Position numbers and translations under genes: made by a program
Shown: piece by piece, positions 4,594 through 61,995 of the stretch
Position numbering within the stretch: position 1 is the first letter of the stretch
Layout: each line of letters opens with the position of its first letter
Notes under the pieces: generated by a model
What the model saw: only the letters and a program-made list of their open reading frames with translations
Database searches by the model: none
What the model was told of the DNA's origin: nothing
Assembly: GCA_018900835.1 (NCBI GenBank)
Contig: JAHIFQ010000015.1
Span: 50,301 to 114,300 of the forward strand
Reading direction: 5' to 3'
Length of the DNA: 64,000 nt
From: Patescibacteria group bacterium
Lineage (GTDB): Bacteria; Patescibacteriota; Minisyncoccia; Minisyncoccales; PEYH01

Positions 4594-5367
4594 ATGTCTG
4601 ATTATTACAAAGCAAAAAGGGATTATAGGATTTTTAAGCCGGGACAGTCGGGAGCGTTTAAAGTGAGCCGTTCAAAAATTGGCTTATTTATGGAATGTCC
4701 AAGGTGTTTTTATATGGATTGTTGCTTGGGCGTAAGCCGTCCGCCGGGATTTCCTTTTACTCTAAACAGCGCAGTTGACAAGCTTTTGAAAAAAGAATTT
4801 GATGTCCATCGGATTGCCAAAACCAGCCATCCTTTAATGGAAGAATATGGGATTGACGCAGTGCCGTTTCAAGACAAGCGGATTGACGAGTGGCGGGATA
4901 CGAGGAGGGGGATTCAATATATCCACGAGCCGACAAATCTTTTGATAATGGGCGCAATTGATGATATCTGGGTTAATCCGCAGGGAGAACTGCATATTGT
5001 GGATTACAAGGCAACATCAAAAGCTGGAGAAATAACATTGGATGCAGAGTGGCAGATTGGGTATAAAAGACAGATGGAGGTCTATCAATGGCTTTTTAGA
5101 CGAAATGAATTTAGTGTTTCTGATACATCATATTTTGTTTATTGTAATGGGAAGACCGATACAGAGGCATTTGATAAAAAGATTGAGTTTGATATTTCAG
5201 TAATTCCATACAAAGGAGATGACGCTTGGGTAGAACAAGCTATTCATGATATTAAAGAATGCCTTGAAAAGGACGCGATTCCGGAAATGGCGTCTGATTG
5301 CGATTATTGCAGTTATAGAAAAGCAGCTGCTCAAGAAAGCTACAAGTTTTCAAAGAAAAATAAATGA
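4594..5367 (+). CDS. Cas4-like PD-(D/E)XK nuclease with Cys cluster (paralog A)
   Basis: N-terminal CPRCF..CC, motif II GAIDD, motif III IVDYK, QxxxY-like QIGYKRQMEVY, C-terminal CDYC. Confidence 0.55.
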   Translation: MSDYYKAKRDYRIFKPGQSGAFKVSRSKIGLFMECPRCFYMDCCLGVSRPPGFPFTLNSAVDKLLKKEFDVHRIAKTSHPLMEEYGIDAVPFQDKRIDEWRDTRRGIQYIHEPTNLLIMGAIDDIWVNPQGELHIVDYKATSKAGEITLDAEWQIGYKRQMEVYQWLFRRNEFSVSDTSYFVYCNGKTDTEAFDKKIEFDISVIPYKGDDAWVEQAIHDIKECLEKDAIPEMASDCDYCSYRKAAAQESYKFSKKNK

Positions 5368-6029
5368 TAAAGATTTCGCCTAATTCTTTGAATCTGTATT
5401 TTGAATGTCCGTTTTGTTTTTGGCTGGAAAAGAATAGGGGAATCAAAAGACCTGCGCCGTTTCCTTATGAGTTAAACTTGGCGGTTGACCAGGTTTTGAG
5501 GCGTGATTTTGACAAACATAGAGCAAAAGATAGAAAGCATCCTTTACTTGAAGCAAACAATATTCCTGCCAAGCTTTTTTCAAACCAAAAACTTTTGAAC
5601 GAATGGCGGAACAAGTCCAAGGGATTGGAATATTATGACGAAAAAACAGGGGCAGTCATTTTCGGAGTGCTTGATGATGTGTTGGATTTTGGGAAAGGGA
5701 AACTGGCGCCGTTTGATTATAAGTCAACAGGAAGCAGTGTGCCCAAGGTCTATGACAGGTTTCAGCTTCAGATGGATGTTTACACTTTTCTTTTGGAGAA
5801 GAACGGATACGCCACTCCAAGAAAAGGCGTTTTAGTATTTTATACTGTTGATAAGGACGATTCTTTTGATGACCGATTGCCGTTCAAAAAAGAGATTCAT
5901 ATTATTGATACTGACCCATCATATATTTTAAGAACATTCCGAGAAGCGATTAAGTTTTTGAAAAAACCTGCTCCATTGGCTCACAGCCCGGAATGCGAAT
6001 TCGGCAGGTGGGCCGAGCTTTTAAAATAA
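5364..6029 (+). CDS. Cas4-like PD-(D/E)XK nuclease (paralog B), overlaps paralog A by 4 nt
   Basis: CPFCF, RPAPFPYELNLAVD, GVLDDV, FDYKSTG, QLQMDVY. Clear paralog of 4594-5367. Confidence 0.55.
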   Translation: MIKISPNSLNLYFECPFCFWLEKNRGIKRPAPFPYELNLAVDQVLRRDFDKHRAKDRKHPLLEANNIPAKLFSNQKLLNEWRNKSKGLEYYDEKTGAVIFGVLDDVLDFGKGKLAPFDYKSTGSSVPKVYDRFQLQMDVYTFLLEKNGYATPRKGVLVFYTVDKDDSFDDRLPFKKEIHIIDTDPSYILRTFREAIKFLKKPAPLAHSPECEFGRWAELLK

Positions 6030-12358: not shown

Positions 12359-13027
12359 TTGAAAATTGATAAGGTTATAGAAGAAGCGATATTGGGCGCA
12401 TTAAGAGACCCCGAACTTTTTAAAAAGATGTTTCGGGCGTTTTTGCAAAAACAAAAGCAGGTAGTTGAGGCGCTGTTTGCCTTGACGGACACAGAGCCGG
12501 AATTCGTAGAAGAAGAACCAATGTTGGGAGTGTTATTGTATGCGTTAGAGCATGGCGAAGACCTGTTCAATGACCCTTTAACAAGGGTCCGAGACGGACG
12601 GCTTTTCAGGGATGGGGTCTATGATAAGCTCATTGCTGAAGCCGAACGATACAAGCATCCGTTGAGCGTAGTAATCATTGATGTAGATGATTTTAAGGCC
12701 ATCAATGACACCTTCGGCCATTTGGCTGGAGATAGAGCGTTGGAACGAGTTGCTTCAATCCTTTCCAAGGAAGCGAAGCGTGGCATAGATATTGTTATTC
12801 GCCACGGCGGAGATGAGTTTTTGCTCATTCTTCCTCATACAGAGGCAACAGGCGCTGGAGTCCTGATGGGCCGAATAGAGAAAGTGTTATCAACGCTATC
12901 TCCGAGGGTCTCAATCAGCTTCGGAATTAATTCCTGGATTCCGGGAAGTGATTCGATTAGCCTGGGCGCGATGGTGAAGGCAGCAGATATGGCCATGTAT
13001 AAGCATAAGCAGGGCAAACGCACATAG
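12359..13027 (+). CDS. GGDEF-domain diguanylate cyclase (GC-rich, likely horizontally acquired)
   Basis: VIIDVDDFKAINDTFGHLAGD...RHGGDEFLLIL carries the GGDEF signature. ~50% GC versus ~35% in flanks. Confidence 0.8.
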   Translation: MKIDKVIEEAILGALRDPELFKKMFRAFLQKQKQVVEALFALTDTEPEFVEEEPMLGVLLYALEHGEDLFNDPLTRVRDGRLFRDGVYDKLIAEAERYKHPLSVVIIDVDDFKAINDTFGHLAGDRALERVASILSKEAKRGIDIVIRHGGDEFLLILPHTEATGAGVLMGRIEKVLSTLSPRVSISFGINSWIPGSDSISLGAMVKAADMAMYKHKQGKRT

Positions 13028-13155: not shown

Positions 13156-14091
13156 TTATCCGTGATATTTTCTATGTATTTCTTTTAAATGAGGTCTGGT
13201 GACATGGGTATAAATCTGGGTGGTGACAATATTCCTATGTCCCAAGAATTCTTGCACAACCCTTAAATCAACGCCTTTCATTAATAAGTCAGTGGCAAAG
13301 CTATGTCTTAATGTATGCGGAGTCGTGGTTATTGGTAATCCTGCCAGCACAACATATTTTTTTATTATCCGCTCAATTGTTCTAGTGGTAATCCTCCCTT
13401 GGACTTTTGGCCCCCTATAGGTCACAAACAAAGCTCTTTCTTTGTCTGCTCGTTTCACAAGATATTGTTGAAGCCAATCAATTGTTCTTTGTGACAGGAA
13501 AACTGTTCTTGGATGGCCTCCTTTGCCAACAATGCCAATTTCCAAGTCCTTTGTGGTCGGTTTAATAGTTATCTGGTCCCGATTAAGAGCAACTAATTCA
13601 GCAACCCTTAATCCAGTGGAAAATAGTGTTTCTAAAATTGTTCGGTCTCTTAATCCGTTTATGTCGTTTAAATTAGGGATTGCTAAGAGTTTTTCAACCT
13701 GTTCTAATGTAAGAAAATTAACAGTCCGCTCCTGTGATTGTTTGGTTAATTTTATTTTTTCCGGTGGCAGGGAAATGATGTCCTTATCAGCGAAATAGGT
13801 TAAGAGTGAACGCAGAGCGATTAAGTAGTAGTTTTGAGTATTTCGCTTAAGCGGTTTTTTGTCTTTTTTTAGGTATTGGCGCGATAAAAATGTCTTATAT
13901 TTGAAAATATGGTCAGGAGTCATTTGGTGGGGTTTAAGGTTTTCTAATTTGTTTATTTTTGACCATTCTAAGAATTTTTGTAAAAACCTAGAATAGTTTT
14001 CTTGCGACTTATATGCAAGTCCTTTTTCAATATCAGTCCAGTCCAAAAAATCATTTATATGTTTTATAATTGGTTTTTCTGAATTATGCAT
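13156..14091 (-). CDS. Tyrosine site-specific recombinase (XerC/XerD-like phage-integrase family)
   Basis: C-terminal HTLRHSFATDLLMKGVDLRVVQEFLGHRNIVTTQIYTH with R..H..R..Y catalytic residues. 311 aa. Confidence 0.85.
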   Translation of the reverse strand: MHNSEKPIIKHINDFLDWTDIEKGLAYKSQENYSRFLQKFLEWSKINKLENLKPHQMTPDHIFKYKTFLSRQYLKKDKKPLKRNTQNYYLIALRSLLTYFADKDIISLPPEKIKLTKQSQERTVNFLTLEQVEKLLAIPNLNDINGLRDRTILETLFSTGLRVAELVALNRDQITIKPTTKDLEIGIVGKGGHPRTVFLSQRTIDWLQQYLVKRADKERALFVTYRGPKVQGRITTRTIERIIKKYVVLAGLPITTTPHTLRHSFATDLLMKGVDLRVVQEFLGHRNIVTTQIYTHVTRPHLKEIHRKYHG

Positions 14092-16334: not shown

Positions 16335-17489
16335 TTATTTTTCAAGCGCATCTGGATATAAGTATTTTGTCAAGTGTTCAGCGATCGTTTTTGCCGCATC
16401 TGGCTTAGCGAACCCCAGGGCTGCCTTGCTCATTGCCAGAAGTTTTTCCGGCTGTGAGAAGATAAGCATTATTTTCGAGAATAAAAGAGCTGGAGTAGGA
16501 TTTTTGGGCTCCATAATAATTGTAGCTCCAGTAGAAGCATAAGCATTGGCATTTTTCGCCTGATGGTCTTGAGATGATTCTGGCAAAGGAATAATGATGC
16601 TCGGCTTTCCTGTTGCAGCGATTTCAAAAATAGCGCCCGAGCCAGCCCTACTGATTATCAAATGAGCTGATTTGTACGCTTGTTTCATCTCGTCTTCTGT
16701 TAGGAAATCAAAAAGATGGTATCTTTTCGCCAATTGTTGTTCTTTGATTATTATGTCTGCCATTACTTTTGCTTCTTCGTAATTTTTTAATCCGCATTGA
16801 TGGATAATCTCAAAGTTTTTAAGCAAATCAGGAAGAGCAGTAAGAGCCAATTCGTTCATCTCCTTGGCTCCTTGCGACCCACCACATATAAATATCACTG
16901 GCTTATCTCCGGACAAATTAAATAATTTCTTACCCTCTTCCTTATTGCCTGAAAGCAAATCGCTTCTTATAGGATTGCCAACGCATAACACCTTGGACGG
17001 AATAACATTATCAATTTTCGTTTCTTGGAAAGATGTAAAAATAATTGTTGCTGTTTTGGCAAACAATCTTGTTGTTTTGCCAGGCACCATATCTGATTCA
17101 TGCAAAAACAAAGGGATTTTTAATGCTCTGGCAACGATATTGACTGGTACTGCCCCATAACCACCTTTGCTGAAAACAATATCAGGAGATATTATTCTGA
17201 CAAAAATAAAGGACTGGATAAATCCAATAGGAATTTTGAATATTAGGTCAATTATATTTTGAATAATGCTTTTTGGAGTGATATATCGTCTGATTTTCCC
17301 TGCCAAGATTGCTTTCATCTCAACATTTTCTTTTCTAAGAAGTTCCTGCGTGATTTTTCCATTAGGACCGATAAAATATATCTTGATTTTTTTATCCTTT
17401 AAAACAGGACTGTTTTTCAATTCTCTAATAATAGCGATTATCGGGAAAAGATGACCTCCAGTTCCTCCGCCAGTAAAGAGTATTTTCAT
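16335..17489 (-). CDS. murG: UDP-GlcNAc:undecaprenyl-PP-MurNAc-pentapeptide GlcNAc transferase
   Basis: MKILFTGGGTGGHLFP N-terminus. GT28 architecture. Confidence 0.85.
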   Translation of the reverse strand: MKILFTGGGTGGHLFPIIAIIRELKNSPVLKDKKIKIYFIGPNGKITQELLRKENVEMKAILAGKIRRYITPKSIIQNIIDLIFKIPIGFIQSFIFVRIISPDIVFSKGGYGAVPVNIVARALKIPLFLHESDMVPGKTTRLFAKTATIIFTSFQETKIDNVIPSKVLCVGNPIRSDLLSGNKEEGKKLFNLSGDKPVIFICGGSQGAKEMNELALTALPDLLKNFEIIHQCGLKNYEEAKVMADIIIKEQQLAKRYHLFDFLTEDEMKQAYKSAHLIISRAGSGAIFEIAATGKPSIIIPLPESSQDHQAKNANAYASTGATIIMEPKNPTPALLFSKIMLIFSQPEKLLAMSKAALGFAKPDAAKTIAEHLTKYLYPDALEK

Positions 17490-17507: not shown

Positions 17508-18617
17508 TTAAAAATTATTTTTAGGTTGTTTTGATATATTCAACAACAAACCGATTGCTATTAGTTCCATTACTAAATGAGAGCTTCCATAACTCACTAA
17601 TGGCAACGGAATTCCTGTGAGTGGCAAAATTCCTATCATAGCGCCGATATTAATAAATGCTTGGAGTGTTATCCAAAATGTAATACCTATCGCTATAAGC
17701 TTAAAAAATATTTCCGAAGATTGTTTTGCTATTTTAAAACCCTGCCAAGCAAATATCAAAAATAATGATATTAATATGATGGCTCCAATAAATCCTGTTT
17801 CCTCTGCAAATACAGCGAATATACTGTCAGTCATTGGAGCAGGAAGAAATCCAGATTTTTGAACGCTCAATCCAAGTCCCTGCCCTATTATGCTGCCAGA
17901 GCCAATAGCTATAAGCGCTTGTTTCATTTGGTACCCGATTCCTAATGGTTGGGCGTCAGGCCGCAGGAAAACCAAGAGCCGATTTAGTCGGTATGGCGCG
18001 GTCTTGATTAATATAGCCAAGGCCCCGATTCCAGACAAAATCAGCAACCCGGTTTGCCAAAAAGGGGTTTCAGCGCTGAAGTACATTACCAATGTAATCG
18101 CTGCGATTGTGGCTAATGTGCTGATGTCCGGCTGTTTGATTAATAGAACGCAGACAACAGTTAAAATTATTATGAATGGCAAAAACAATTGGACCCTTTT
18201 TTTATTTTGCTCCTTATGCTTAGTGAGCCAGGCAGCAAGATAGACAATAAAGATTAATTTTAATAATTCGGACGGCTGAATCGTAATTGGTCCCAAGGAG
18301 ACCCAACGGTTTGCCCCGCCTATTGGTACGCCGATTTTTGGCACGAATACAAGCATCATTAATATTATCACCCCGAAGAGCGCTGGCAGGGATATTTTTC
18401 TTAATGACTTTAAATTGATTTTATACGCCAGGAAGCCCAGTATAAGTCCTGGAAAATATCCGTATTTTATTTGGTGCATCAGGTATTGGAAAGAATTTCC
18501 ATAAACTTTTTGAGATACTGTTAAGGAAACGCTGGCAAGAATCGCAAATCCTAAAATCAATAAAAGAGAGATAGTGAGCGAAAGTATTAGGTCGGGCTTG
18601 TTTTTTTGTTTTTTCAT
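17508..18617 (-). CDS. ftsW: SEDS-family peptidoglycan polymerase/flippase (FtsW/RodA)
   Basis: ~10 TM helices. dcw-cluster position between murD and murG. Confidence 0.75.
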   Translation of the reverse strand: MKKQKNKPDLILSLTISLLLILGFAILASVSLTVSQKVYGNSFQYLMHQIKYGYFPGLILGFLAYKINLKSLRKISLPALFGVIILMMLVFVPKIGVPIGGANRWVSLGPITIQPSELLKLIFIVYLAAWLTKHKEQNKKRVQLFLPFIIILTVVCVLLIKQPDISTLATIAAITLVMYFSAETPFWQTGLLILSGIGALAILIKTAPYRLNRLLVFLRPDAQPLGIGYQMKQALIAIGSGSIIGQGLGLSVQKSGFLPAPMTDSIFAVFAEETGFIGAIILISLFLIFAWQGFKIAKQSSEIFFKLIAIGITFWITLQAFINIGAMIGILPLTGIPLPLVSYGSSHLVMELIAIGLLLNISKQPKNNF

Positions 18618-19981
18618 TTAGCGAATTGCTTAACGAATTTTTGAAATTGGTCTCCCCTGTCTTTATAGTCCTTGAATATTCCAAAACTTGCGCAACCCGG
18701 AGACAGCGCGCAGATTCCTTTTCTGGCAGTATGTTGATAGCATGCCTTGACCGCATCTCTCATATTATCTACAAGAATAAATTTTGGTTTTTCATCTGTT
18801 TCACCCATTGTTTCCATAATGGCTTGCTTGATTCTCTTGCCTGCGGGCGGAAAAACAATAATTGTTTTAATGCGGTGTTTGATAATTATTTTGGCTAATG
18901 AAGAGAAATTCAGTCCCCTTTCATGGCCTCCCAATATAATGGTCTGTGGGTTGATGGCTTTTATAGCGCTTATGGCAGCGATTGGCTCGGTTGCAAAGCT
19001 GTCGTCATAAAAAATAATTTCTTTAAATTTTCCTATTTTCTGTAAACAATGCTTTTGAGTTCTGTAATCAGATATTGATTTTTTGATTTTTGAAAAAGGA
19101 ATATTAAATAAGCGGGCAGCGCATATTGCAGACATTATATCATATATGAAATGTTCTCCTTGCAGATGAATATCCTTCACTTTTGTAACCTTTTTTCCTT
19201 GATAAAATATTGCCTCTTGATTAAAATAGCAGTCGTTTGAATCATCTTTGCCAAAAGTGATTTTTCTGGCTTTGGTTTTTTCTGCTAAAGTTTTCAACCG
19301 AGGAGAATCAGAATTGAAAATAAAAAAATCGTTTTTTTTCTGCCAAAGGGTAATATTCTTTTTTGCCGCAAAGTATTCTTCGGTGTCTTTGTAATAATCT
19401 AAATGCCCCTCATGAATATTTAAAAATATTGCGATATATGGACTCACTTTTATATCCTCTAATTGATGAGAAGATATTTCAAAAATAAATGTTTTTTTGG
19501 ATTTTCCGTCTTTAAAATAGTTTAAAACCGGCTTCCCGATGTTCCCGATAAGCTCTGCCTCATGATTGCTTTCTTCAAAAATTTTATAAAGCAAGCTCAC
19601 AGTAGTGCCCTTGCCTTTTGTGGCGGTTACGCCGATAGTTTGTTTTGAATAATTTTGTAGAAAAATATCAGTTTGAGAGGCGATAGTTTGATTATTAGAA
19701 ATATATGGGGCGAATATTTTTCTAGAGATGCCCGGGGTTTTGATTATAACATCATAATCCCCTATTGATTTCAAATAATTATTCCCTAAATGCAGCTTTG
19801 TATTCTCATCTTTCTTGATTTTTCTTTTCAGAGTTTTTGATAATTCTCTAAACTCTAATTTATCTGCTAAGCCAATAATTTTATCAGGAAAAATTTTCCG
19901 TAGAAACTTAAAACTTGACTCTCCTTCTCGGCCAAGCCCTAAAATCAGAATTTTTTTGTTTTCAAGCTGTGTTAGCTTCAT
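18614..19981 (-). CDS. murD: UDP-N-acetylmuramoylalanine--glutamate ligase
   Basis: ILGLGREGES N-terminus, GVTATKGKGTT P-loop. Mur ligase architecture. Confidence 0.8.
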   Translation of the reverse strand: MKLTQLENKKILILGLGREGESSFKFLRKIFPDKIIGLADKLEFRELSKTLKRKIKKDENTKLHLGNNYLKSIGDYDVIIKTPGISRKIFAPYISNNQTIASQTDIFLQNYSKQTIGVTATKGKGTTVSLLYKIFEESNHEAELIGNIGKPVLNYFKDGKSKKTFIFEISSHQLEDIKVSPYIAIFLNIHEGHLDYYKDTEEYFAAKKNITLWQKKNDFFIFNSDSPRLKTLAEKTKARKITFGKDDSNDCYFNQEAIFYQGKKVTKVKDIHLQGEHFIYDIMSAICAARLFNIPFSKIKKSISDYRTQKHCLQKIGKFKEIIFYDDSFATEPIAAISAIKAINPQTIILGGHERGLNFSSLAKIIIKHRIKTIIVFPPAGKRIKQAIMETMGETDEKPKFILVDNMRDAVKACYQHTARKGICALSPGCASFGIFKDYKDRGDQFQKFVKQFAK

Positions 19982-21234
19982 CTCTTTATTGTTTCGCTTA
20001 TTTTTTTCAGAACAATAGGTAGGTTGTGCCTTTCTTTTTCAATACAGGACTTAATTATTTTCTTTGATTCAGAGATTGTTCCCACGCATTCAAATGGCTT
20101 AAACGCTTTTTCCCCAATCAATTGCTCCATCAATGGGACAAGCTTTTTGTCTTCAAAAAGGTTTTTTCCAAATATTTTTATCATGTCTTTTTTTTCCACA
20201 AAAGCATAAAGAGCGCTGAACACAAATAGGCATTTTGCGCACTTCCCGCACCATCTCTTGGATGCGTTTTTTGTTTTATACGCATTATTGCAACTTAAAA
20301 AAAATGGGTGATATTGTTTTAATCCAGCAAATTTTTTGATAATCTCTATTTCTGACAACTTCCTCAATGGGCTGTAAATCTTAATATTTTTCAAAAGATA
20401 TTTTTTAGCGTAATTTTGCATCATTTTTTCAAATTCAGATGACTTTGACCATTGATGGTTTATCCATTTGCCTTGGTATTTTACATTTCCTTCGTCAGCG
20501 CTTTTTTCCCATGAAAAAGCAATAGTCCCGTAGTCAAATATTTCCGCCAAAAGGATAGACAAGAAAGAAAGAAACGCTGAAAAAGGCACATGGCCATTTA
20601 AGAGCCCTTTCTTGTTAAGGGCGAAGAGCTTGCTATCTAACTTTCTTTCAATAAAAATATTTTCTTTAAGCCGAGCGATTCTTATAATATCTTTTTGCGG
20701 TTTAATAGCATTGAGGACAAATGAGCCAATATTCTTTTTTTGTTTGTCAAGCATTTTTAGCGTTACTGGAGCGTCTTTTCCCCCGCCAATAGGAACCAGA
20801 ACCCTTTTATTATTCAGCTTTTTCTCTAATGGTTTGAATTGTGGTTTGTTTTTATTTACTATTATTTCTAAAAATTTTGGTTTTCTGAAATCAATTTTAT
20901 TTTCATAAAAATACTGGCCCATTCCATTGATAATGATTCTTTTTAAAAAAGTAATCTGTTGTTTATCAAGATTGCCTGCCTCAATCTTTATTATCGGAGA
21001 GCAGGTCAATTTCCAATAATTGAGCATTTCAATCAATCCAAGATGGAATACTAAATTATCAATATCTTTGAGTTCTGATTTCTCAATGTTCTTGATTATG
21101 ATTTCTGTCGTAAATTTCAAATCCGGGTTAATTGAAAAATTAAACCAGATTTTCAAATCTGTTCCGACTGTTTTATAGTCAAATCCCTTATAAACAAATT
21201 CTTTATGCTTTTTTTGGATTTCTCCGGCGTTCAT
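19978..21234 (-). CDS. Unknown PP-loop-like ATPase-fold protein with C-terminal Cys motif, translationally coupled to murD (candidate MurL-like glycopeptidyl-glutamate epimerase)
   Basis: VPIGGGKDAP (degenerate SGGxDS PP-loop), C-terminal CGKCAKC. 4-nt overlap with murD start inside the dcw cluster. Confidence 0.3.
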   Translation of the reverse strand: MNAGEIQKKHKEFVYKGFDYKTVGTDLKIWFNFSINPDLKFTTEIIIKNIEKSELKDIDNLVFHLGLIEMLNYWKLTCSPIIKIEAGNLDKQQITFLKRIIINGMGQYFYENKIDFRKPKFLEIIVNKNKPQFKPLEKKLNNKRVLVPIGGGKDAPVTLKMLDKQKKNIGSFVLNAIKPQKDIIRIARLKENIFIERKLDSKLFALNKKGLLNGHVPFSAFLSFLSILLAEIFDYGTIAFSWEKSADEGNVKYQGKWINHQWSKSSEFEKMMQNYAKKYLLKNIKIYSPLRKLSEIEIIKKFAGLKQYHPFFLSCNNAYKTKNASKRWCGKCAKCLFVFSALYAFVEKKDMIKIFGKNLFEDKKLVPLMEQLIGEKAFKPFECVGTISESKKIIKSCIEKERHNLPIVLKKISETIKR

Positions 21235-21368
21235 TTTGCCTTTTTATTTAGTTAACTATTTTTTAATTCTATCATTTTACCCCTAAATGTCTATTAAGAT
21301 TGATATTAAAATAGAATTGCCCCGACCTTGCGTCGGGGCAAAACTATTTTCGTAACTTAGATTACCGA

Positions 21369-21566
21369 TTAAATTCGGGTTACTTTCACCGCATTTTCTC
21401 CTTTTGGAGAATCAGCTTTTTCGAAAGATACTTTATCACCTTCTCTAAGCTCATCATAGCTTACGCCAACGAGCTCATTACCGTGAAAAAATAAATCTTT
21501 CTCTTCGCCTTCGATTGCAATGAATCCGAATCCCTTATCAGTAAGTTTTTTGATTGTTCCTTCCAT
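21369..21566 (-). CDS. Cold-shock protein (CspA family)
   Basis: KGFGFI (RNP1) and FFHGNEL (RNP2-like) motifs. 65 aa. Long A/T-rich 5'UTR 21567-21741. Confidence 0.85.
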   Translation of the reverse strand: MEGTIKKLTDKGFGFIAIEGEEKDLFFHGNELVGVSYDELREGDKVSFEKADSPKGENAVKVTRI

Positions 21567-21741: not shown

Positions 21742-22833
21742 TTAGCCCAGCAAACGGATGGCGACTCCGATAATGGCGGCAATTAGGCCGATGACCCAGA
21801 ACCTCATTGTGATTTTGTAATGTGGCCAGCCCTTAGCTTCAAAGTGATAATGAAGCGGAGCAGCCAGAAAAATTTTGCGTTTGAGAAATTTTTTTGATAA
21901 TTGTTGAAGTATAACTGAACCAGCTTCTGCCACTAAAAGAAGTCCAATAATCGGCAAAACCAAAACCGAATCAGTAAGAAAAGCTACGACCGTAAGGGCA
22001 GTGCAAAGCCCCATTGTCCCTGACTCTCCCATATAGAATCTGGCAGGAGGGATATTAAACCAGAGAAATGCGAGTAAAGCGCCTGCAACTACTGCGCAAA
22101 AAGCAGCGACATCTATCTGCCCTCTGAAAAGAGCAATAATAGCGTAAGCCCCAAAGATTGTTGAAAAACTGCTTCCAGCCAGACCGTCTATTCCATCTAT
22201 CACTCCCCCAGCATATACAGCCATCATTACAAACACGAAAAATGGAATATACCAAGCGCCTATTAATAATTCTCCATTTCCAGGGATGTGCAAACTTATC
22301 CATCCGAGCTTTGAGTAAAACCACCATCCGCCTATTAGCCCTATTAAAAAAACTGAACCTAAGCGGTATTTTAAACTTAATCCACCGCCAATGTATTTCC
22401 CTTTGCCCCTCACCTGAAGCAGGTCATCTACTAATCCAACGATTGATGCTGCTACCATTGCAAATAAAGGCAACCAGGTCTGGGAACGGCTTAAAAAATT
22501 TAATTTTTGGATAAATGTGCCGTTAAATTCAGTCAAAAGAAAAAATACAACTGCCAATATCGGCGGAATGGTCCAAATCAAAATTCCTCCCAACCGAGGA
22601 GTTTTTACTTCTTGGTCTGAATGAAATTTTTTAAATACAGGCATTTCTTTCCCATCAATAGATTTCTCCCTGCCTGTTTTTTTCCAAAGTTTGTACTTAT
22701 AAAGAAAGTGAGTAAGAAAAGGCGTCGCTAATATTGCGACGATAAAAGAGATGGCTCCTAATGTTAAAATTTTAAGCACACTAAATGTAAGGTCAGCATT
22801 CTGAAGGTTTTGAATTATGCTTATCCCTACCAT
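21742..22833 (-). CDS. mraY: Phospho-N-acetylmuramoyl-pentapeptide transferase
   Basis: Multi-TM. VDDLLQVRGK and MGESGTMGL (MGDxGS-like) motifs. Confidence 0.8.
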   Translation of the reverse strand: MVGISIIQNLQNADLTFSVLKILTLGAISFIVAILATPFLTHFLYKYKLWKKTGREKSIDGKEMPVFKKFHSDQEVKTPRLGGILIWTIPPILAVVFFLLTEFNGTFIQKLNFLSRSQTWLPLFAMVAASIVGLVDDLLQVRGKGKYIGGGLSLKYRLGSVFLIGLIGGWWFYSKLGWISLHIPGNGELLIGAWYIPFFVFVMMAVYAGGVIDGIDGLAGSSFSTIFGAYAIIALFRGQIDVAAFCAVVAGALLAFLWFNIPPARFYMGESGTMGLCTALTVVAFLTDSVLVLPIIGLLLVAEAGSVILQQLSKKFLKRKIFLAAPLHYHFEAKGWPHYKITMRFWVIGLIAAIIGVAIRLLG

Positions 22834-28305: not shown

Positions 28306-28659
28306 TTAAAGTAGTTTTTTCCTGCCTTTTTGGATTTGTGCCACAAGTGGTTTGAGCGGAGATAAATCTTCTTTGATCGTTTTCCAAAGAACTTTTTTAT
28401 CCACGCCGAAATATTCGTGTACTAATTTATTGCGCATTCCGGTCATAATTTTCCATGGAATATCAGAATGTTGTTTTTTTATATCTGAAGGGATACGCCT
28501 TGCAGCCTCGCCTATTATTTCGAAGTTTCTAATAGTTGCGTCTACTGTCTTAAGGTCTTTTGAGAATTCGCTAAAATCTAATTTTTCCGTATATCTTTCT
28601 ATTTTTTCTATTGCCTCAAGAATATCATCAATATATACTTTATAATCCCTTTCAGACAT
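28306..28659 (-). CDS. hepT: HepT-like HEPN toxin (DUF86) of a type VII TA pair
   Basis: RNKLVHEY (Rx4-6H HEPN motif). Likely start at MSERDYK. Overlaps mntA stop by 8 nt. Confidence 0.7.
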   Translation of the reverse strand: MSERDYKVYIDDILEAIEKIERYTEKLDFSEFSKDLKTVDATIRNFEIIGEAARRIPSDIKKQHSDIPWKIMTGMRNKLVHEYFGVDKKVLWKTIKEDLSPLKPLVAQIQKGRKKLL

Positions 28660-28945
28660 AAACAGTTTCTTTAATGATTCCGTCCTTGATTCTGGATTTA
28701 AGCGCATCTTTCATTACTAAATCAACTTTTAGTTTTAGTTGTATTTTTAGATAATTTTCAAGCCCGATGAAGCTGAACAAACTGATTGGTTCCGAGAACT
28801 CTACTAAGAGATCTAAATCGCTAGATTTTTTCTGTTTATTTTTTACATAAGAGCCAAAAACACCGATTTTTTTTACTTTAAACTTGTCTTTTAAAATCGG
28901 CTCTAATTCTTTAAGGTTTTTTTGAATCTGAATAAGCTTAGCCAT
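28652..28945 (-). CDS. mntA: MNT-type nucleotidyltransferase antitoxin
   Basis: GVFGSYVKNKQKKSSDLDLLVEF (GSx9-13DxD NTase motif). 97 aa. Confidence 0.7.
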   Translation of the reverse strand: MAKLIQIQKNLKELEPILKDKFKVKKIGVFGSYVKNKQKKSSDLDLLVEFSEPISLFSFIGLENYLKIQLKLKVDLVMKDALKSRIKDGIIKETVYV

Positions 28946-32184: not shown

Positions 32185-32904
32185 CTATTCTATTACTACC
32201 TCTTCAAAATCAACTAATTCTTTTTTAAACTTAAGCCAATTATTAACAAATTCTCGGCAACCATCTGCACCTTCCATTATTTTCTCTAAAAATTCCCTAT
32301 TTGTCAAAGAAGGGAAATTTTTCTTTCCTAAATAATCTGGATAACTTGACCATTTATATTTATTTTCTAAAAAATCAATTGCCGCATCTATGTTTTCTAT
32401 TTGCACTCCTTTGTTTTTCCATTCCAGAATTATTAATGACATTGGATTTGTGTGTATATAAACAAACACAGTTTCTAATCGCTCTTCTGTCTCGATACGA
32501 ACTATCCTGTATCTTCCTTGAAAAAGATGTCCATTCCTCTCATATTTTTTATTATAGTAACCACTATAACCTGCTCCAATCTTATGCATTAATTTGCTGA
32601 TTCCGTTATCGCAAGTTTGTTTTATTAACAAATGAATATGATTTGGCATTAGGCAAAATGCCAAAATTTCTACCAAAAGTTTCCTTTTCTTTCTATTCTC
32701 GCCGAGATCGTTTCTCGGCAGAGATAGCGGAGATAAGTTTCTTCTATAATCTCTGGATACTGGATTTTCGTCGTTAAATTCAAAAAGGTTGTTTATCATT
32801 CGAAAATAATCTTTATCGCCACGAAAAAGGTCTATCCCCTCTATTGTTCGGGTGACGATATGATATATTTCTCCATTTACTATTTCAGGTCTTTTTGATG
32901 GCAT
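32185..32904 (-). mobile_element. REP-associated tyrosine transposase (RAYT; IS200/IS605 TnpA Y1 HuH family)
   Basis: HuH motif LMPNHIHLLI and catalytic Tyr region YSGYYNKKYERNGHLFQGRY. Flanked by REP palindromes. Carries one REP in-frame (LPRNDLGE). Confidence 0.75.
32701..32719. repeat. REP family 1 copy inside RAYT coding sequence (in-frame)
   Basis: GCCGAGATCGTTTCTCGGC. Confidence 0.85.
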
Positions 32905-35343: not shown

Positions 35344-36714
35344 TTAATTACTGATTAATGATTTTATCGCAATCACTGCCCTTCGCGGGTCAGGATAATT
35401 CGGGATATGATTCTTTTCCAAAATTTTCACTGCTGGCTCGGTTAATTCACCTCCTATAAAAGCAGCAACAATCGGTTTTTGGGGCCATTTCTTTTGCGCC
35501 TCTATTATAATTTTAGCATTTTTAATTGGTTCAGTCATTGTTTGCGGAGTTTGAATTACAATTAAACCATTAATATCTTTTTGAGCCATGATCGCGCTTA
35601 TAGCAATTTCGTATCTGTTAGAAAGCGCATCCCCGACTATATCCATTGGATTGCTTTTAGAATATCCGGGGTGCATTAGTTTTGAATTCTCTATTTTTTT
35701 TAATGTTGCCTGATTTGGTTTAGGCAAATTTATTCCAAATTGATAGCAATAATCAGCAGCAAGGATTCCAGCCCCTCCGCCATTAGTTATGATAGCAATT
35801 CCATTTTTGCATTTTGCATGCCATGATAATACCTTGGCAATATCTAAAAGTTCTTCTATAGAGGAGACCTCTATAAGTCCAGCTTGTTTAAAAGCAACAG
35901 AATATATTTGGCTCTCTCCTGCCAAAGCGCCAGTATGTGAAGAAACCGCTTTTTTTGAATTAGGATTTTTTCCTCCTTTCAAGATTAAAACTGGTTTCTT
36001 TATGGCTGTTTCTTTTGCTGCTTCAAAAAATTGTCTGCCGTTTTTCAGTCCCTCTAAATACAGGGCGATTACCTTTGTTTTTGAGTCGTTTTTCGCCCAA
36101 TTCAAAAAGTCCACCAAATTCAGGCCAGCTTCATTTCCATAAGATATTATGGCAGAAAAACCCCAGGACTTGCCATTTGAGGCATCAATAATAGCGTCTA
36201 TAAGAGCCCCTGATTGGGATATAAGGGCGATGTTGCCTTTGCTCGGGGTTAGCGGCGCAAAGGAGGCATTGAGCCCTGTACAAGGCCTTAAAATGCCCAA
36301 GCAATTAGGGCCCACAAACGCTGTGTTGGCGCGGGTTAAGGCCTGTTTTACCTTATCCTGTAAAACAGCACCTTTTGTGCCTGTTTCAGCAAATCCAGAA
36401 GAGATAATAATGACTGATTTTACCTTTTTTTGAATGCATTGTTCTGTTACTTTCAACACGACTTGGGCTGGCACAGCGATTACTGCCAAGTCAATCTCTC
36501 CTTTTATTTCCAAAACAGAAGGCAATGTTTTAATGCCAAAAACTTTTTTCCTGTTGGGGTTTACTAAAAAGATTTTTCTCCTCGCCCCGGCTTTGGCGGA
36601 TGTCTCTTTTCCTGATAATAGATTTTTCACCAATCCCCTGCCCACCGAGCCAATTTTGTCGGTTGCACCGATAACAGCGATTGTTTTTGGATTGAAAAGA
36701 TAATTTAATTTCAT
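35344..36714 (-). CDS. Acetyl-CoA synthetase (ADP-forming) alpha subunit (CoA-binding + ligase-CoA domains)
   Basis: TIAVIGATDKIGSVG CoA-binding Rossmann fold. Succinyl-CoA-synthetase-like domains. 456 aa. Confidence 0.7.
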   Translation of the reverse strand: MKLNYLFNPKTIAVIGATDKIGSVGRGLVKNLLSGKETSAKAGARRKIFLVNPNRKKVFGIKTLPSVLEIKGEIDLAVIAVPAQVVLKVTEQCIQKKVKSVIIISSGFAETGTKGAVLQDKVKQALTRANTAFVGPNCLGILRPCTGLNASFAPLTPSKGNIALISQSGALIDAIIDASNGKSWGFSAIISYGNEAGLNLVDFLNWAKNDSKTKVIALYLEGLKNGRQFFEAAKETAIKKPVLILKGGKNPNSKKAVSSHTGALAGESQIYSVAFKQAGLIEVSSIEELLDIAKVLSWHAKCKNGIAIITNGGGAGILAADYCYQFGINLPKPNQATLKKIENSKLMHPGYSKSNPMDIVGDALSNRYEIAISAIMAQKDINGLIVIQTPQTMTEPIKNAKIIIEAQKKWPQKPIVAAFIGGELTEPAVKILEKNHIPNYPDPRRAVIAIKSLISN

Positions 36715-37337
36715 AAGATAATTTTTGCATCAATAACCATTGCCCCTTTCTTGTTCGCTATTACAGGATTCAGGTCAATTTCCTTGATTCTTTGTTCTCT
36801 TGAAATCATCAAAGAAAGTGATAATAAAATCTCCTCTAATTTTAGGAGATTAACCAACTCTCTATTCCTATATCCCTTAAGAATTTTATTTCCTTGAATT
36901 TCGCTTATCATTTCTTTCGCCTCTTTCTTGTTAATGGGCGCGAGTCGGAACGAAATATCTTTCAATATTTCTACAAATATTCCGCCAAGACCGAAAGCCA
37001 CTACTGGCCCGAAAACAGAATCTCTTTTGGCGCCAATGATAATTTGCTCTCCAAAAATCATTTTCTGAATAATAATTTCGGTTTTTTTGGCTTTAGCGAT
37101 TTTCTCAATTTTTACCCACGAAGTTAATAAATCCTTTTCATTTTTAATATCTATAATCACTCCCCAAATATCTGTCTTATGGATTATTTTCGGAGAAAAA
37201 ATTTTTAAAACCACTGGAAATTCATTCTGTTTTGAAAACAAAATTGCCTCCTTAACGGTTTTAACAATCTTGGCCTTAACTTGCGGAATTTTGTATTTCG
37301 CAAGCAGTTTTTTTGTTTCTTCAAGTCCCAGAAGCAT
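36711..37337 (-). CDS. Acetyl-CoA synthetase (ADP-forming) beta subunit (ATP-grasp)
   Basis: ATP-grasp_5-like. 4-nt overlap with alpha subunit. Confidence 0.65.
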   Translation of the reverse strand: MLLGLEETKKLLAKYKIPQVKAKIVKTVKEAILFSKQNEFPVVLKIFSPKIIHKTDIWGVIIDIKNEKDLLTSWVKIEKIAKAKKTEIIIQKMIFGEQIIIGAKRDSVFGPVVAFGLGGIFVEILKDISFRLAPINKKEAKEMISEIQGNKILKGYRNRELVNLLKLEEILLSLSLMISREQRIKEIDLNPVIANKKGAMVIDAKIIL

Positions 37338-45143: not shown

Positions 45144-46553
45144 TTATCGATTATTGACCTTGCGGAGGAATGCTGGAATTTCCCACTTATTTTCTTCTTC
45201 AAGCATCTTTTTTTCATCATCAACCGCCTGCTTCTGCAAATCCAAAGCATTCCTGCGAATATTTGTCTTTTTGACAATCTGAAGCTTTTTAACCTTGTTC
45301 TTCTTTTTTATTATTTTTGGCTTCTCTTCTTTGTTGTCTGGTGCCTGTGGTATTTTTACTTCCTCTAATTTTTCCTTAGGTTTAGCGATACTTGCTTCAG
45401 AGGGCATTTTTTCTTCTTCCTTTTTCTGCTCCGACTCATTAATCGCCCCTGCTTTGATTTCATCTTTCTGTTTTCTTATTATTTTCTTTTTTGGCTTGGG
45501 CTTTTCCTTTGCGCCGCAACCAACAGCCATTAAAGTAATTTTTAATTTTCCTTGATGTTGAGCGTCCTGCATTACTCCAAAAATGATTTTTGCCTGCGGG
45601 TTATAGGCCTCAATTTTTTTGCAGATTTCCTCAACTTCGCTCATCTTCATATCTTTGGAGCCCACGATGTTGAATAGCATTCTTTCAACCCCTGAAATAT
45701 CATAATTCATCAAAGGATTATTTAAAACCGCTTCTGCCACCTTTTCTGCTCTGCTTGCGCCGCTGAACTCTTGCGAATTGAGATAAGTTAATTGGCCTTC
45801 TTTTTCTAATACAGCCCTAAAATCGGAAAAATCAAGATTAATCAGACCAGGGAGATACAATGTTTCAATAAAGCCCTCTAAAATCTCGACTAATGCATTA
45901 TTCATCACTGACAATGACTTATGAATCGGTGTTTTTTCGTCAATAATTTTAAAAATCCTTTGGTTTGGAATTATGGTAAAAGCATTTATGTTCTGCTTTA
46001 TTTTCTCAAGAGAAGCCCTAGCTATTCTTCCCCTTTCATTGCCTTCAAATGCGAAAGGCATGGTAAATATCCCGAGTGATAAAATACTCAAACTCTTAGC
46101 AATTTCCGCAAACACTGGCGTTGCCCCAGAGCCAGTTCCTCCACCTAAGCAGGAAATGAATATACAAAAATCACAATTTTTTAAAAGTTTCTCTATTGAT
46201 TTCTTATCTTGTAAAGCGGATTTTTCTCCAAGTTCAATATTCATTCCACAGCCAAGCCCTCTTGTTATCTCCTTGCCGAAATAAAAAGCTCCTGCTTGTT
46301 TAGGAACCATTTTGATTGCTTGATAATCAACATTAGCAACAATGAACTTAATCTTGTTTAAGTGAGGCAATTTTTTTCTGTATATTGTTTTGGCGATTTC
46401 TCCAACAATGGAACCGCCTCCCCCGCCAATTCCAATTATACCTATCCTTGGATGGAAAAATGTTTCCTGTTTCAGCTTCTTAGGCACGACACCCACAACC
46501 TTGGCCTTTGCTCTAATTTTGGATTTTTCGTTTTGGATTTTGGATTTGGACAT
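45144..46553 (-). CDS. ftsZ: Cell division GTPase FtsZ
   Basis: IGIGGGGGSIVGEIA tubulin signature, GGGTGSGA. Lys/Glu-rich C-terminal tail. Confidence 0.85.
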   Translation of the reverse strand: MSKSKIQNEKSKIRAKAKVVGVVPKKLKQETFFHPRIGIIGIGGGGGSIVGEIAKTIYRKKLPHLNKIKFIVANVDYQAIKMVPKQAGAFYFGKEITRGLGCGMNIELGEKSALQDKKSIEKLLKNCDFCIFISCLGGGTGSGATPVFAEIAKSLSILSLGIFTMPFAFEGNERGRIARASLEKIKQNINAFTIIPNQRIFKIIDEKTPIHKSLSVMNNALVEILEGFIETLYLPGLINLDFSDFRAVLEKEGQLTYLNSQEFSGASRAEKVAEAVLNNPLMNYDISGVERMLFNIVGSKDMKMSEVEEICKKIEAYNPQAKIIFGVMQDAQHQGKLKITLMAVGCGAKEKPKPKKKIIRKQKDEIKAGAINESEQKKEEEKMPSEASIAKPKEKLEEVKIPQAPDNKEEKPKIIKKKNKVKKLQIVKKTNIRRNALDLQKQAVDDEKKMLEEENKWEIPAFLRKVNNR

Positions 46554-48009: not shown

Positions 48010-48564
48010 TTATAATTCAATCTCTTTGCTTATTTCCTTCATCGCATCTAAAGAAATCTTTACAAACTCTTCCAGCGACAGTCCGAGAAGCAGTTCACAT
48101 TTTCCAATTATCTCTCGGTTAGCTCCTCTGGCAAACGCCTTTTCCTTAAATCTATTCAGCACATTTTCCGTGGTAAGCTCTTTGATATTTTTTGACGGAA
48201 GAACCAAGGTAGAGGCAACAATTAATCCGCTTATCGGGTCGCAGACAAACAATGCTTTTGCCATAAGCCCTTCTGGCGCGATAGAGTGCGCTTCATTATG
48301 CGTTTTAACTGCCTCACAGATTTCTTCGCCGAAGCCCAAGTTCTTGAGCATTTCTGCGCCAATTAAAGAGTGCTTTAGCGGAGCGTCTTTTGTCTTTTCA
48401 TAATCAATATCATGCAACAATCCAGCAATCCCCCATTTTTCAGAATCTCCGCCCAATCGCTTGGCAAGCCCTCGCATAATCGCTTCAACTGCCAAACAAT
48501 GCTTGAGAAGATTGTTGTTAAACAAATTCTCTTTTAATAATTTATGCGCTTCCTCTCTGTTCAT
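48010..48564 (-). CDS. HD-domain phosphohydrolase (YqeK/HDIG-like)
   Basis: H…HD motif: HCLAVE … GLLHDIDYEKT. Confidence 0.55.
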   Translation of the reverse strand: MNREEAHKLLKENLFNNNLLKHCLAVEAIMRGLAKRLGGDSEKWGIAGLLHDIDYEKTKDAPLKHSLIGAEMLKNLGFGEEICEAVKTHNEAHSIAPEGLMAKALFVCDPISGLIVASTLVLPSKNIKELTTENVLNRFKEKAFARGANREIIGKCELLLGLSLEEFVKISLDAMKEISKEIEL

Positions 48565-49343
48565 AATAATGACTGGATAATTTTTGTTTTTGGATAATTT
48601 TCTATTTGTTTAAGATGGCTCTTGTTGCACCATTCCCAAAGCCGTTTAGCGCCGATAAACCCATCAATATCGTGATTAAAATCCTTCAATTCCTTAAACT
48701 CAAACTCCCCTCTTGCTGGCGAAAATTTATGATAGCAACTTGTCTTGCCTCCTCTAATTAAAATTTTTCCTCCTTTTACTCTTTTCTTTGCTCCACAAAA
48801 CTTACATTCCTCAAATTGGTCTAATCGAAGAATCCATCTTGTTTTTGCCATCCTTTTTGAAGGAACGGATTTGTTATAGGCGCCCATATATGCGGCAAGT
48901 TGCAAGGAATATTCGTCCCAAATGCCAGAACCGGTCTTAATATCTAAGACACCCAAAACACCTTTAATTTCAACTAATGCATCAAGAGTGCCTGCATACC
49001 GGTCTTCTAAATCATAAACCTTTCTTTCTACATCATTTTGGACATCCAAAATTTTTGCCTTGTACTCTTTTTTCCATTTTTTAAACGCTTGAATTGACGG
49101 AATAATTATCGGGTCAACTTCATATTCCTCCCCAGTTAAAAATTTTTCCACTGCCTGATGTGTAGCTGTCCCCCAACTGGCTGCATTATCAAGTGTTTGT
49201 TGCGCTGCCATAAAATTTGGCTGTTGGGCATAGTACCTTAAAAGCCCGGGCTTAAAGACCACATTCGTGATGCTCGTTACTCTTGGCAACCAATAACTCT
49301 CTATATCATATCCGTTTTTTTCTTTGAATTCCTGTAGGGACAC
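48561..49343 (-). CDS. PD-(D/E)XK-family nuclease with C-terminal zinc-ribbon-like Cys pairs
   Basis: GTLDALVEIKG, VLDIKTG, QLAAY (QxxxY), CKFCG…CYHK. Confidence 0.5.
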   Translation of the reverse strand: MSLQEFKEKNGYDIESYWLPRVTSITNVVFKPGLLRYYAQQPNFMAAQQTLDNAASWGTATHQAVEKFLTGEEYEVDPIIIPSIQAFKKWKKEYKAKILDVQNDVERKVYDLEDRYAGTLDALVEIKGVLGVLDIKTGSGIWDEYSLQLAAYMGAYNKSVPSKRMAKTRWILRLDQFEECKFCGAKKRVKGGKILIRGGKTSCYHKFSPARGEFEFKELKDFNHDIDGFIGAKRLWEWCNKSHLKQIENYPKTKIIQSLL

Positions 49344-60577: not shown

Positions 60578-61369
60578 TCATTCTATCGTTTTATCAAAAA
60601 TATCCAAATAATCAATATTTTTGTCATCCAAAAGAAAGGGTTTTAATTTTTTCTTAAAATCCTTGATGTTTAATTTTACTTTTCTTTTATAAACATCAGT
60701 TAATTTTTCAAACAATTCTTTCTCTGTTTTAACTTTCATCTCAGAAAAAAGTTTTGGATGAGGTTTAACCCTATAAGACAGGAGCCAAGCAATATCGTAA
60801 AAATCTCTTGGCTGAATATCTTTTCTAGTGAGGGCGGCTCGAATCTTTTGAGATAAAAGAAAGCTTTTTGTGTTTGTAATAACAGGCCGAAGAAAGCCAA
60901 ATCTTTTTAAAATAACGACTTCCGTCTCTGGTCTGGTCTTTGGTGTAGTGTAATTAATTTTAACATTTAATTTTTCATTCTTATCGGTGGTAATTCCTAA
61001 ATCAAAAAGCAATTTGGGGAATTTAAAACTCCCAATTCCAGAATTATTTGTTTTCTTAAAATTGAATTCCGCTTCAAGATTCTCCTTTTTGAACTCCGAG
61101 GATATTTCCTTGAACAGCGACCTTATTTTCTCGTGAGAAAGACCTAAATTATCAAAATCTAAATCCTCGGAAAATCTATCTATATTCCTTAAAATTCTTA
61201 AACTAGTTTCTCCAATAAAAGAGAGCTTTTCCGATTTTGGCTGGTTATAGAGATGATAAATCGTCTTACATTGGAGATATTCTCTAATTAAAGCCCTTTT
61301 CTTTGTCTCGGGAACCTCTAAGCTTTTGCCTTCTTCTAAAATTGTTTGCCACAAAAATTCACTAATCAT
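60578..61369 (-). CDS. abiEii: AbiEii/AbiGii-family nucleotidyltransferase toxin (type IV TA / abortive infection)
   Basis: FIGETSLRILRNIDRFSEDLDF matches the GGTAL..R.S.DLD AbiEii motif. Confidence 0.6.
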   Translation of the reverse strand: MISEFLWQTILEEGKSLEVPETKKRALIREYLQCKTIYHLYNQPKSEKLSFIGETSLRILRNIDRFSEDLDFDNLGLSHEKIRSLFKEISSEFKKENLEAEFNFKKTNNSGIGSFKFPKLLFDLGITTDKNEKLNVKINYTTPKTRPETEVVILKRFGFLRPVITNTKSFLLSQKIRAALTRKDIQPRDFYDIAWLLSYRVKPHPKLFSEMKVKTEKELFEKLTDVYKRKVKLNIKDFKKKLKPFLLDDKNIDYLDIFDKTIE

Positions 61370-61995
61370 TTTTTATATTCTTTAAATAAGTTTTCCATAG
61401 ATAAATGGAATTTTTTGTTATTTGAAGAAACTAATTTTTGCCACTTCTTTAAATCGCTCCATTTGAAATCCTCGCCAATATCCAGACGCATTTCCTTAAA
61501 ACAATTCTTCGGATCAAAACCCTTTCCGAAGCTTCGTAGATATAAAAAATCAAATAGCGCTTTCTCCGGGACCGCTATCCTATAAGAGTATGGGGAATCA
61601 GCGTCTACCTTTCTATGACCAAAGAAAAGTTCTGGTTTGATATGACGATAAATAAATAAACCGTAGTTCTCCGTTTTGATTGTTAATGTTTTCTTAAGAG
61701 AGATAGAAGTGGTGGCAAAAGGAATATCTGGAATAATCCCATAATAATTTAAAGCGGTTTCGCAAGAGATATAAGAAGGAAAGAAAAAATCAGCCAAAAC
61801 TAAAACATCTTTTATCTGATAATCGCTAAATTTATAAATCCCTCTTTTCAATCTTTCCAGATGCCCTCTTTTTGTCCAGACGCTCAATTGGAAAATTATG
61901 GTTCTCCTATTTTCATTGGCGAACCATTTAAAAATATCATCTAATCTAAAAATAGGATAATCTTGTAATTTTTTCTTTAATTCAAAATAGGTCAT
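61366..61995 (-). CDS. abiEi: AbiEi-family antitoxin-like protein (N-terminal wHTH)
   Basis: 4-nt overlap upstream of AbiEii gene. ~200 aa with N-terminal basic wHTH-like region. Confidence 0.45.
   Translation of the reverse strand: MTYFELKKKLQDYPIFRLDDIFKWFANENRRTIIFQLSVWTKRGHLERLKRGIYKFSDYQIKDVLVLADFFFPSYISCETALNYYGIIPDIPFATTSISLKKTLTIKTENYGLFIYRHIKPELFFGHRKVDADSPYSYRIAVPEKALFDFLYLRSFGKGFDPKNCFKEMRLDIGEDFKWSDLKKWQKLVSSNNKKFHLSMENLFKEYKK

Follow-up and report, generated by a model that had tools for sequence, protein, structure and literature searches.

A 418-residue open reading frame (ORF) in the genome of a Patescibacteria group bacterium very probably encodes the peptidoglycan-precursor epimerase MurL, which would work together with a MurD2-type ligase encoded by the next gene. 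The ORF lies on the minus strand (19978–21234, ATG start) of a 64,000-nucleotide stretch of contig JAHIFQ010000015.1 (GenBank assembly GCA_018900835.1, positions 50,301–114,300), hereafter called the window. An original prediction, made from the letters of the window, had placed the ORF between csp/mraY and murD with its strand unstated and had put it forward as a MurL-like candidate; both the position and the candidacy hold up below. Judged by its sequence, the protein is an uncharacterised member of the known MurL family on a distant branch, and the "alternative" MurD2/MurL route is probably how the source bacterium builds its cell wall.

MurL inverts L-glutamate to D-glutamate on the precursor of the cell wall at the expense of ATP. 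The MurD2/MurL pair was reportedly described by Feng et al. in 2017. We draw on that work as presented in two reviews (PMC8788868, PMC5808125). Our own evidence comprises homology, synteny, gene fusions, a residue signature in MurD, and a predicted fold; the enzyme chemistry comes from published work on the Xanthomonas, Micromonospora, and Salinispora enzymes, and we infer the same activity, together with adenylation and the later steps, for the window protein.

Assignment to the MurL family

The ORF matches the NCBIfam model NF041275 (UDP-N-acetyl-alpha-D-muramoyl-L-alanyl-L-glutamate epimerase MurL) over its full length (E = 2.2e-75, 253.9 bits), with residues 12–408 aligned to model positions 11–404 of 447. 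Precomputed annotation from a newer Pfam release assigns the identical protein the domains MurL_N (PF26299) and MurL_epimerase_C (PF26298), a pair present in all 120 homologues listed. The older release used for our scan of the window holds no MurL families and returned only sub-threshold QueC and WavE matches.

More than 2,200 homologues at E ≤ 1e-5, along with 2,463 related cluster representatives at 50% identity, show that the ORF is real, and a spurious or chance reading frame is thereby ruled out. The identical protein occurs on six contigs, one of them of 169 kb, the three listed places being separate samples, and is named "hypothetical protein" at NCBI, where its source is a "Patescibacteria group bacterium" metagenome-assembled genome (MAG); a relative with 58% identity has already been named as the epimerase by the Joint Genome Institute. 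A PDB sequence search with the ORF returned nothing relevant (enolase only, E ∼1.4), and neither sequence nor Foldseek searches found a MurL structure in the PDB.

Some MurL homologues are annotated elsewhere as "tRNA(Ile)-lysidine synthase TilS/MesJ" or as "7-cyano-7-deazaguanine synthase" (QueC). These names are probably mis-annotations that arise from the common PP-loop fold.

A probable L-Glu signature in the partner ligase

Directly 3' of murL lies murD (18614–19981, minus strand; 455 residues; TIGR01087, 306 bits against a cut-off of 212), a MurD2-like gene for a predicted L-Glu-adding ligase. The TGA of murL and the ATG of murD share the four nucleotides ATGA (19978–19981), read directly from the sequence and in agreement with the 4-nt overlap described in the original prediction. 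The two genes are thus predicted to be translationally coupled.

Compared with Escherichia coli MurD, X. oryzae MurD2 carries the changes D182→E197, K348→R358, A414→P433, and L416→F435 (PMC8788868). E197 and R358 set its L-Glu specificity, and an E197D/R358K double mutant switches to D-Glu; conversely, E. coli MurD K319T gains L-Glu acceptance, and the P433 position proved non-discriminating by mutagenesis (PMC8788868). We used E. coli MurD to locate the equivalent positions, checking the numbering at K115, H183, and K198, and compared 65 MurL-linked MurDs with a small control set, namely five canonical D-Glu MurDs whose structures have been solved.

Position 319 separates the two groups: the MurL-linked MurDs have L, I, F, or M and never K (0/65), whereas all five canonical enzymes have K. 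Position 348 is R in 65/65 MurL-linked MurDs and K in four of the five controls; because the remaining control, Streptococcus agalactiae MurD, also has R, this residue alone is insufficient as a MurD2 marker. Position 182 is E in 59 of the 65 and D in 4/5 controls, while position 416, F or Y throughout the MurL-linked set, does not discriminate (canonical L in two, F in two, and W in one). The loss of K319 as a signature is derived in the present analysis and agrees with the published K319T result. The MurD domains of MurL fusion proteins, described below, carry the same signature.

The window MurD has E181/G182, F319, R348, A414, and F416 in E. coli numbering. It therefore resembles the L-Glu-adding UDP-MurNAc-L-Ala ligase MurD2 (XOO_1320) in having Arg at R358 and Phe at F435 and in having lost Lys319, and differs from it in having Gly at E197, with a Glu one residue earlier, and Ala at P433. 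Its local motif is HEGH, common to only its two closest relatives, as opposed to xPEH in 59 of the 65 MurL-linked MurDs. The original prediction had suggested that the murD might be a variant and that its specificity residues be inspected: R348 and the absence of K319 support that idea, and G182 does not, the published E182 determinant therefore not being literally present. On these residues, assignment of the window MurD to the MurD2 type is well supported, with that one published determinant lacking.

Distribution, gene order, and fusions

When a single genome from each GTDB species was scanned with a profile of the family alignment, at least 590 confirmed relatives were recovered, of which the best 80 loci were analyzed. 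Within Patescibacteria these loci come from Parcubacteria, Nealsonbacteria, Paceibacterota, Microgenomates, Gottesmanbacteria, Peregrinibacteria, and Minisyncoccus; the other lineages represented are Acidobacteriota, Bacteroidales, Binatia, Delta- and Gammaproteobacteria, and Actinomycetota. Where at least 1.6 kb of downstream sequence was available (71 loci), a same-strand murD follows murL in 62, at a distance of ≤ 400 nt in 39 of these. The order dacA-mraY-murL-murD-ftsW-murG is complete in 31 of the 80 loci, and the murL-murD pair is also found in the cultured Minisyncoccus archaeiphilus.

In a set of 1.84 billion cluster representatives (50% identity), searched exhaustively, the 2,463 relatives mentioned above reach E ≤ 1e-3, and 1,067 of them reach E ≤ 1e-30. 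About 20% of the top 150 representatives (31) are of fusion length (740–1,062 residues). MurL is followed by a MurD-like domain in 28 of these 31 (27 full-length and one C-terminally incomplete), and the remaining three are one MurD-MurL, one MurE-MurL, and one MurB-MurL protein. MurE consumes the MurL product. Independently of homology, the fusions to MurD, MurE, and MurB place the family in cytoplasmic UDP-MurNAc-peptide synthesis, and they suggest substrate channelling between consecutive cytoplasmic steps of peptidoglycan synthesis.

The published distribution of MurL, described as limited, covers Xanthomonadales, a few Alphaproteobacteria, Micromonosporaceae, and vague "low similarity" matches elsewhere (PMC8788868, PMC5808125). 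Searches of the searchable open literature for MurL in Patescibacteria, also called the Candidate Phyla Radiation (CPR), and for the murI status of Parcubacteria returned nothing relevant, most "MurL" matches being typos for MurI or unrelated words. From the distribution of homologues, the MurD2/MurL route looks much more widespread than that literature says, and the Pfam entries may already imply the wide distribution, the frequent fusions, and the QueC-like fold described next.

A QueC-like PP-loop fold and a possible mechanism

An AlphaFold2 model of the window protein, built from a 34-sequence alignment, reached a predicted local distance difference test score of 92.6 and a predicted template-modelling score of 0.92. 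The modelled core has a Rossmann-like alpha/beta fold in which the PP-loop follows the first strand. Its best Foldseek match in the PDB is QueC (7-cyano-7-deazaguanine synthase, 3bl5; E = 2.8e-5, template-modelling score 0.65 on the target), over core residues ∼140–340, followed by TtuA, ThiI, MnmA, argininosuccinate synthase, Cap9, and YcfA, all of them substrate-adenylating PP-loop ATP pyrophosphatases.

Both motifs named in the original prediction are present in the sequence: the PP-loop-like I149-G-G-G-K-D-A155 (20770–20790, minus strand; family consensus GGGKDS) and CGKCAKC at residues 329–335 (20230–20250, minus strand). The latter belongs to a four-cysteine cluster, C315...C329-x2-C332-x2-C335 (SCN...WCGKCAKC; 20230–20292, minus strand), that forms a putative QueC-type Zn site. 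Among 79 homologues, G152 and D154 of the PP-loop are kept in 78 and the four cysteines in all. Further invariant residues are R197, N213-G214-H215, P217, E243, S245, H260-Q261, K264, and C383, and the window MurL has all 27 residues that are invariant in the family. Cys383, a candidate catalytic residue, lies in KPFECVGT (residues 379–386; 20077–20100, minus strand), which is invariant in the family alignment; its invariance among the 79 homologues is partly circular, as the motif also served as a pattern for retrieving them.

The PP-loop reading of the original prediction is thus corroborated by the Foldseek results and by the correspondence of motifs in an HHalign comparison of the family profile with E. 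coli QueC. That alignment covers QueC end to end and places VPIGGGKDA on VVFSGGQDS and SCN...WCGKCAKC on TCY...GCGHCAAC; it is weak (probability 14%, E = 0.0019, single-sequence template) and was used solely for motif correspondence. The modelled core of MurL thus resembles that of QueC (3bl5, with a Cys4 Zn site), and the PP-loops and four cysteines of the two align. The two proteins differ in that MurL has a 135-residue N-terminal domain that QueC lacks, a C-terminal helical region, another substrate, and Gly rather than Ser as the first PP-loop residue. QueC activates a carboxylate by adenylation.

These features suggest how the enzyme might work. The QueC-like PP-loop domain would adenylate the alpha-carboxylate of the terminal L-Glu, converting ATP to AMP and pyrophosphate. 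Adenylation could make the C-alpha proton more acidic or allow an oxazolone to form, so that the activated N-acyl amino acid would lose this proton either to an enzyme base, for which the invariant Cys383, His215, and His260 are candidates, or via the oxazolone, with inversion before hydrolysis. Published work established that MurL needs ATP and Mg2+, forms AMP, and acts unidirectionally, and according to the 2018 and 2021 reviews it "lacks known conserved domains" (PMC5808125, PMC8788868). A QueC-like adenylating core, as modelled here, would explain the AMP formation.

By this route neither free D-Glu nor a glutamate racemase would be needed. The canonical suppliers, the racemase MurI and D-amino-acid aminotransferase, likewise provide D-Glu for stem-peptide position 2, by unrelated folds and chemistry: their substrates are free amino acids, and they use either no cofactor or pyridoxal phosphate, whereas MurL acts on a nucleotide-linked dipeptide and consumes ATP.

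Comparison with the Xanthomonas enzyme

The window protein shares with Xanthomonas MurL full-length homology to its NCBIfam model, the two Pfam domains, an adjacent murD-type gene, and a predicted adenylating fold that is consistent with the published conversion of ATP to AMP. It differs in belonging to a distant branch (∼254 bits against the Xanthomonadales model) and in coming from a CPR MAG, a group absent from published distribution lists (PMC8788868). The window form is also short, lacking the C-terminal tail, and has Ala for Ser in the PP-loop. Its gene stands inside an mraY-...-murG cluster and is translationally coupled to murD.

Points against the assignment and alternative explanations

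Several observations weigh against a MurL function for the window protein. Its score falls below the NF041275 equivalog cut-off of 700 bits, about 43 C-terminal model positions are absent, and its PP-loop, GGGKDA, deviates from the canonical SGGxDS. The partner ligase has G182 where MurD2 has Glu at E197. The link to the characterised MurL and MurD2 runs through the NCBIfam model and through published residue numbers mapped onto E. coli MurD. Finally, a missing canonical D-Glu supply can be stated for the 64-kb window alone: a Pfam scan of every window ORF of 239–337 residues, the size range of MurI and D-amino-acid transaminase, found neither MurI (Asp_Glu_race) nor a class-IV aminotransferase.

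As to the score, homologues from an Actinomycetota MAG, a Gammaproteobacteria MAG, Bacteroidales, Binatia, and the cultured Minisyncoccus archaeiphilus reach 232–272 bits on the same model, a range that includes the window protein; the 700-bit cut-off is therefore clade-specific, tuned to Xanthomonadales, and does not mark a boundary of the family.

A paralogue of the MurL family might use the same adenylation chemistry for another modification of the stem-peptide Glu, such as amidation of the alpha-carboxylate to iso-glutamine, with MurD as an ordinary D-Glu ligase. QueC and NAD synthetase turn adenylated carboxylates into amides, QueC making an amide or nitrile in this way, so the QueC-like core is compatible with such a role, as are the sub-cut-off score and the absence of Glu at position 182. 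We nevertheless consider it improbable. The window protein scores on the MurL model like homologues from other phyla, and no glutaminase or ammonia-donor partner was found in the conserved neighborhood. Its MurD has R348 and no K319, as in all MurL-linked MurDs and unlike the five canonical MurDs examined. In addition, epimerases have been proven in family members as divergent as those of Xanthomonas and of Micromonospora/Salinispora (PMC8788868).

The Ser-to-Ala change in the PP-loop, the shortened C-terminus, and the drift of MurD to G182 could alternatively mark an inactive or decaying remnant. Against this, the reading frame is intact, every family-invariant residue is kept, and the translational coupling is preserved. 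Moreover, A or T as the last PP-loop residue and a short C-terminus recur in many lineages at 50–80% identity, which points to purifying selection, and the identical protein is found in separate samples. Decay is thus very unlikely.

A further alternative is a PP-loop enzyme that modifies tRNA or nucleosides (QueC-, TilS-, or ThiI-like) and sits in the division and cell wall (dcw) cluster by chance; the original prediction had named a tRNA-modifying PP-loop enzyme as contrary to its proposal. Such an enzyme would fit the weak QueC matches (PF06508, 18.8 bits against a cut-off of 22, E = 0.0012, residues 266–337; TIGR00364, 13.9 bits against 150, E = 0.03), the TilS/MesJ and QueC names of some homologues, and a tgt gene within the window. 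This reading is effectively refuted, as the QueC matches are partial and sub-threshold, the MurL match spans the full length and beats them by ∼70 orders of magnitude, the N-terminal domain is MurL-specific, murD synteny is kept across phyla, and the fusions are to MurD, MurE, and MurB. QueC proper (preQ0 synthase) was rejected on the same scores, which lie below both the Pfam and the TIGRFAM thresholds.

The MurL assignment with a MurD2-type partner remains our preferred reading. Beyond it, a broader proposal, to which we give even chances, combines three elements: MurD2/MurL would be a major, possibly the main, D-Glu route across Patescibacteria and would be common in Bacteroidales, Acidobacteriota, Binatia, and further lineages known from MAGs; MurL would descend from QueC as a PP-loop adenylating enzyme that bears a Zn site; and the G182 clade would embody a second structural way of recognizing L-Glu.

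Surroundings of the murL-murD pair

The window has a G+C content of 36.8%. All genes of the cell-wall block lie on the minus strand. Downstream of murD are ftsW (17508–18617; FTSW_RODA_SPOVE, E = 1.8e-94), whose start overlaps the murD end, and murG (16335–17489; N- and C-terminal Glyco_transf_28 domains). Upstream of murL are csp, for a 65-residue cold-shock protein (21369–21566; CSD domain), and mraY (21742–22833; Glycos_transf_4). A terminator-like hairpin (21317–21341, minus strand; 10-bp stem with seven GC pairs and a T-rich tail) lies 3' of csp, between it and murL, and a promoter-like site (TAGACA-16-TAGAAT with TG; 21266–21293, minus strand), found by consensus scan only, lies 32 nt 5' of the murL start.

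The csp gene with its own terminator-like hairpin is an insertion between mraY and murL, and csp stands beside murL in only one of the best 80 related loci. Because gene and terminator are inserted 5' of murL, an own promoter is possible for murL-murD-ftsW-murG, and in the window lineage these four genes may be transcribed from it. The ftsZ gene (45144–46553, minus strand) is ∼23 kb from the mraY-murL-murD-ftsW-murG block, and murC, murE, murF, and ddl were not found within the 64-kb window; the dcw cluster is therefore fragmented.

Other features of the window

Elements related to mobility and toxin–antitoxin systems are found elsewhere in the window. An IS200-like Y1 transposase (32185–32904, minus strand; PF01797, E = 1e-13) lies between a pfkB-family kinase and an 804-residue ORF. 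An AbiEii nucleotidyltransferase toxin (type IV toxin-antitoxin/abortive infection) forms a pair of genes at 60578–61369 and 61366–61995 (both minus strand), in which the overlapping upstream ORF, with no Pfam match, is probably the AbiEi antitoxin. A second toxin-antitoxin module, known from precomputed annotation only, pairs an MNT-like small nucleotidyltransferase with a HepT-like protein (28306–28945, minus strand).

A 222-residue protein with a GGDEF diguanylate-cyclase domain (12359–13027, plus strand) adjoins a XerC-like integrase (13156–14091) on this contig of a small-genome Patescibacteria. Three ORFs belong to the PD-(D/E)XK nuclease superfamily (4594–5367 and 5364–6029, plus strand; 48561–49343, minus strand), the first two being adjacent and overlapping. 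An ADP-forming acyl-CoA synthetase (35344–37337, minus strand) is split into two overlapping ORFs, a CoA-binding/succinyl-CoA-ligase-like one of 456 residues and an ATP-grasp_5 one of 208 residues.

Implications

With the "hypothetical" protein assigned to MurL, peptidoglycan synthesis in a reduced CPR genome would gain its D-Glu step. Reviews confine MurD2/MurL to a few genera and on that ground treat the pair as a narrow-spectrum drug target (PMC8788868, PMC5808125). The count of at least 2,463 cluster representatives (50% identity), with matches in at least 590 GTDB species and in many phyla, changes the view of how the route evolved as well as the "narrow spectrum" argument.

If correct, a QueC-derived PP-loop MurL would provide the mechanistic frame that the 2018 and 2021 reviews call missing. 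The QueC-like PP-loop, the Cys4 site, and the R348 and lost K319 of MurD offer concrete residues for mutation, with Minisyncoccus archaeiphilus as a possible test organism.

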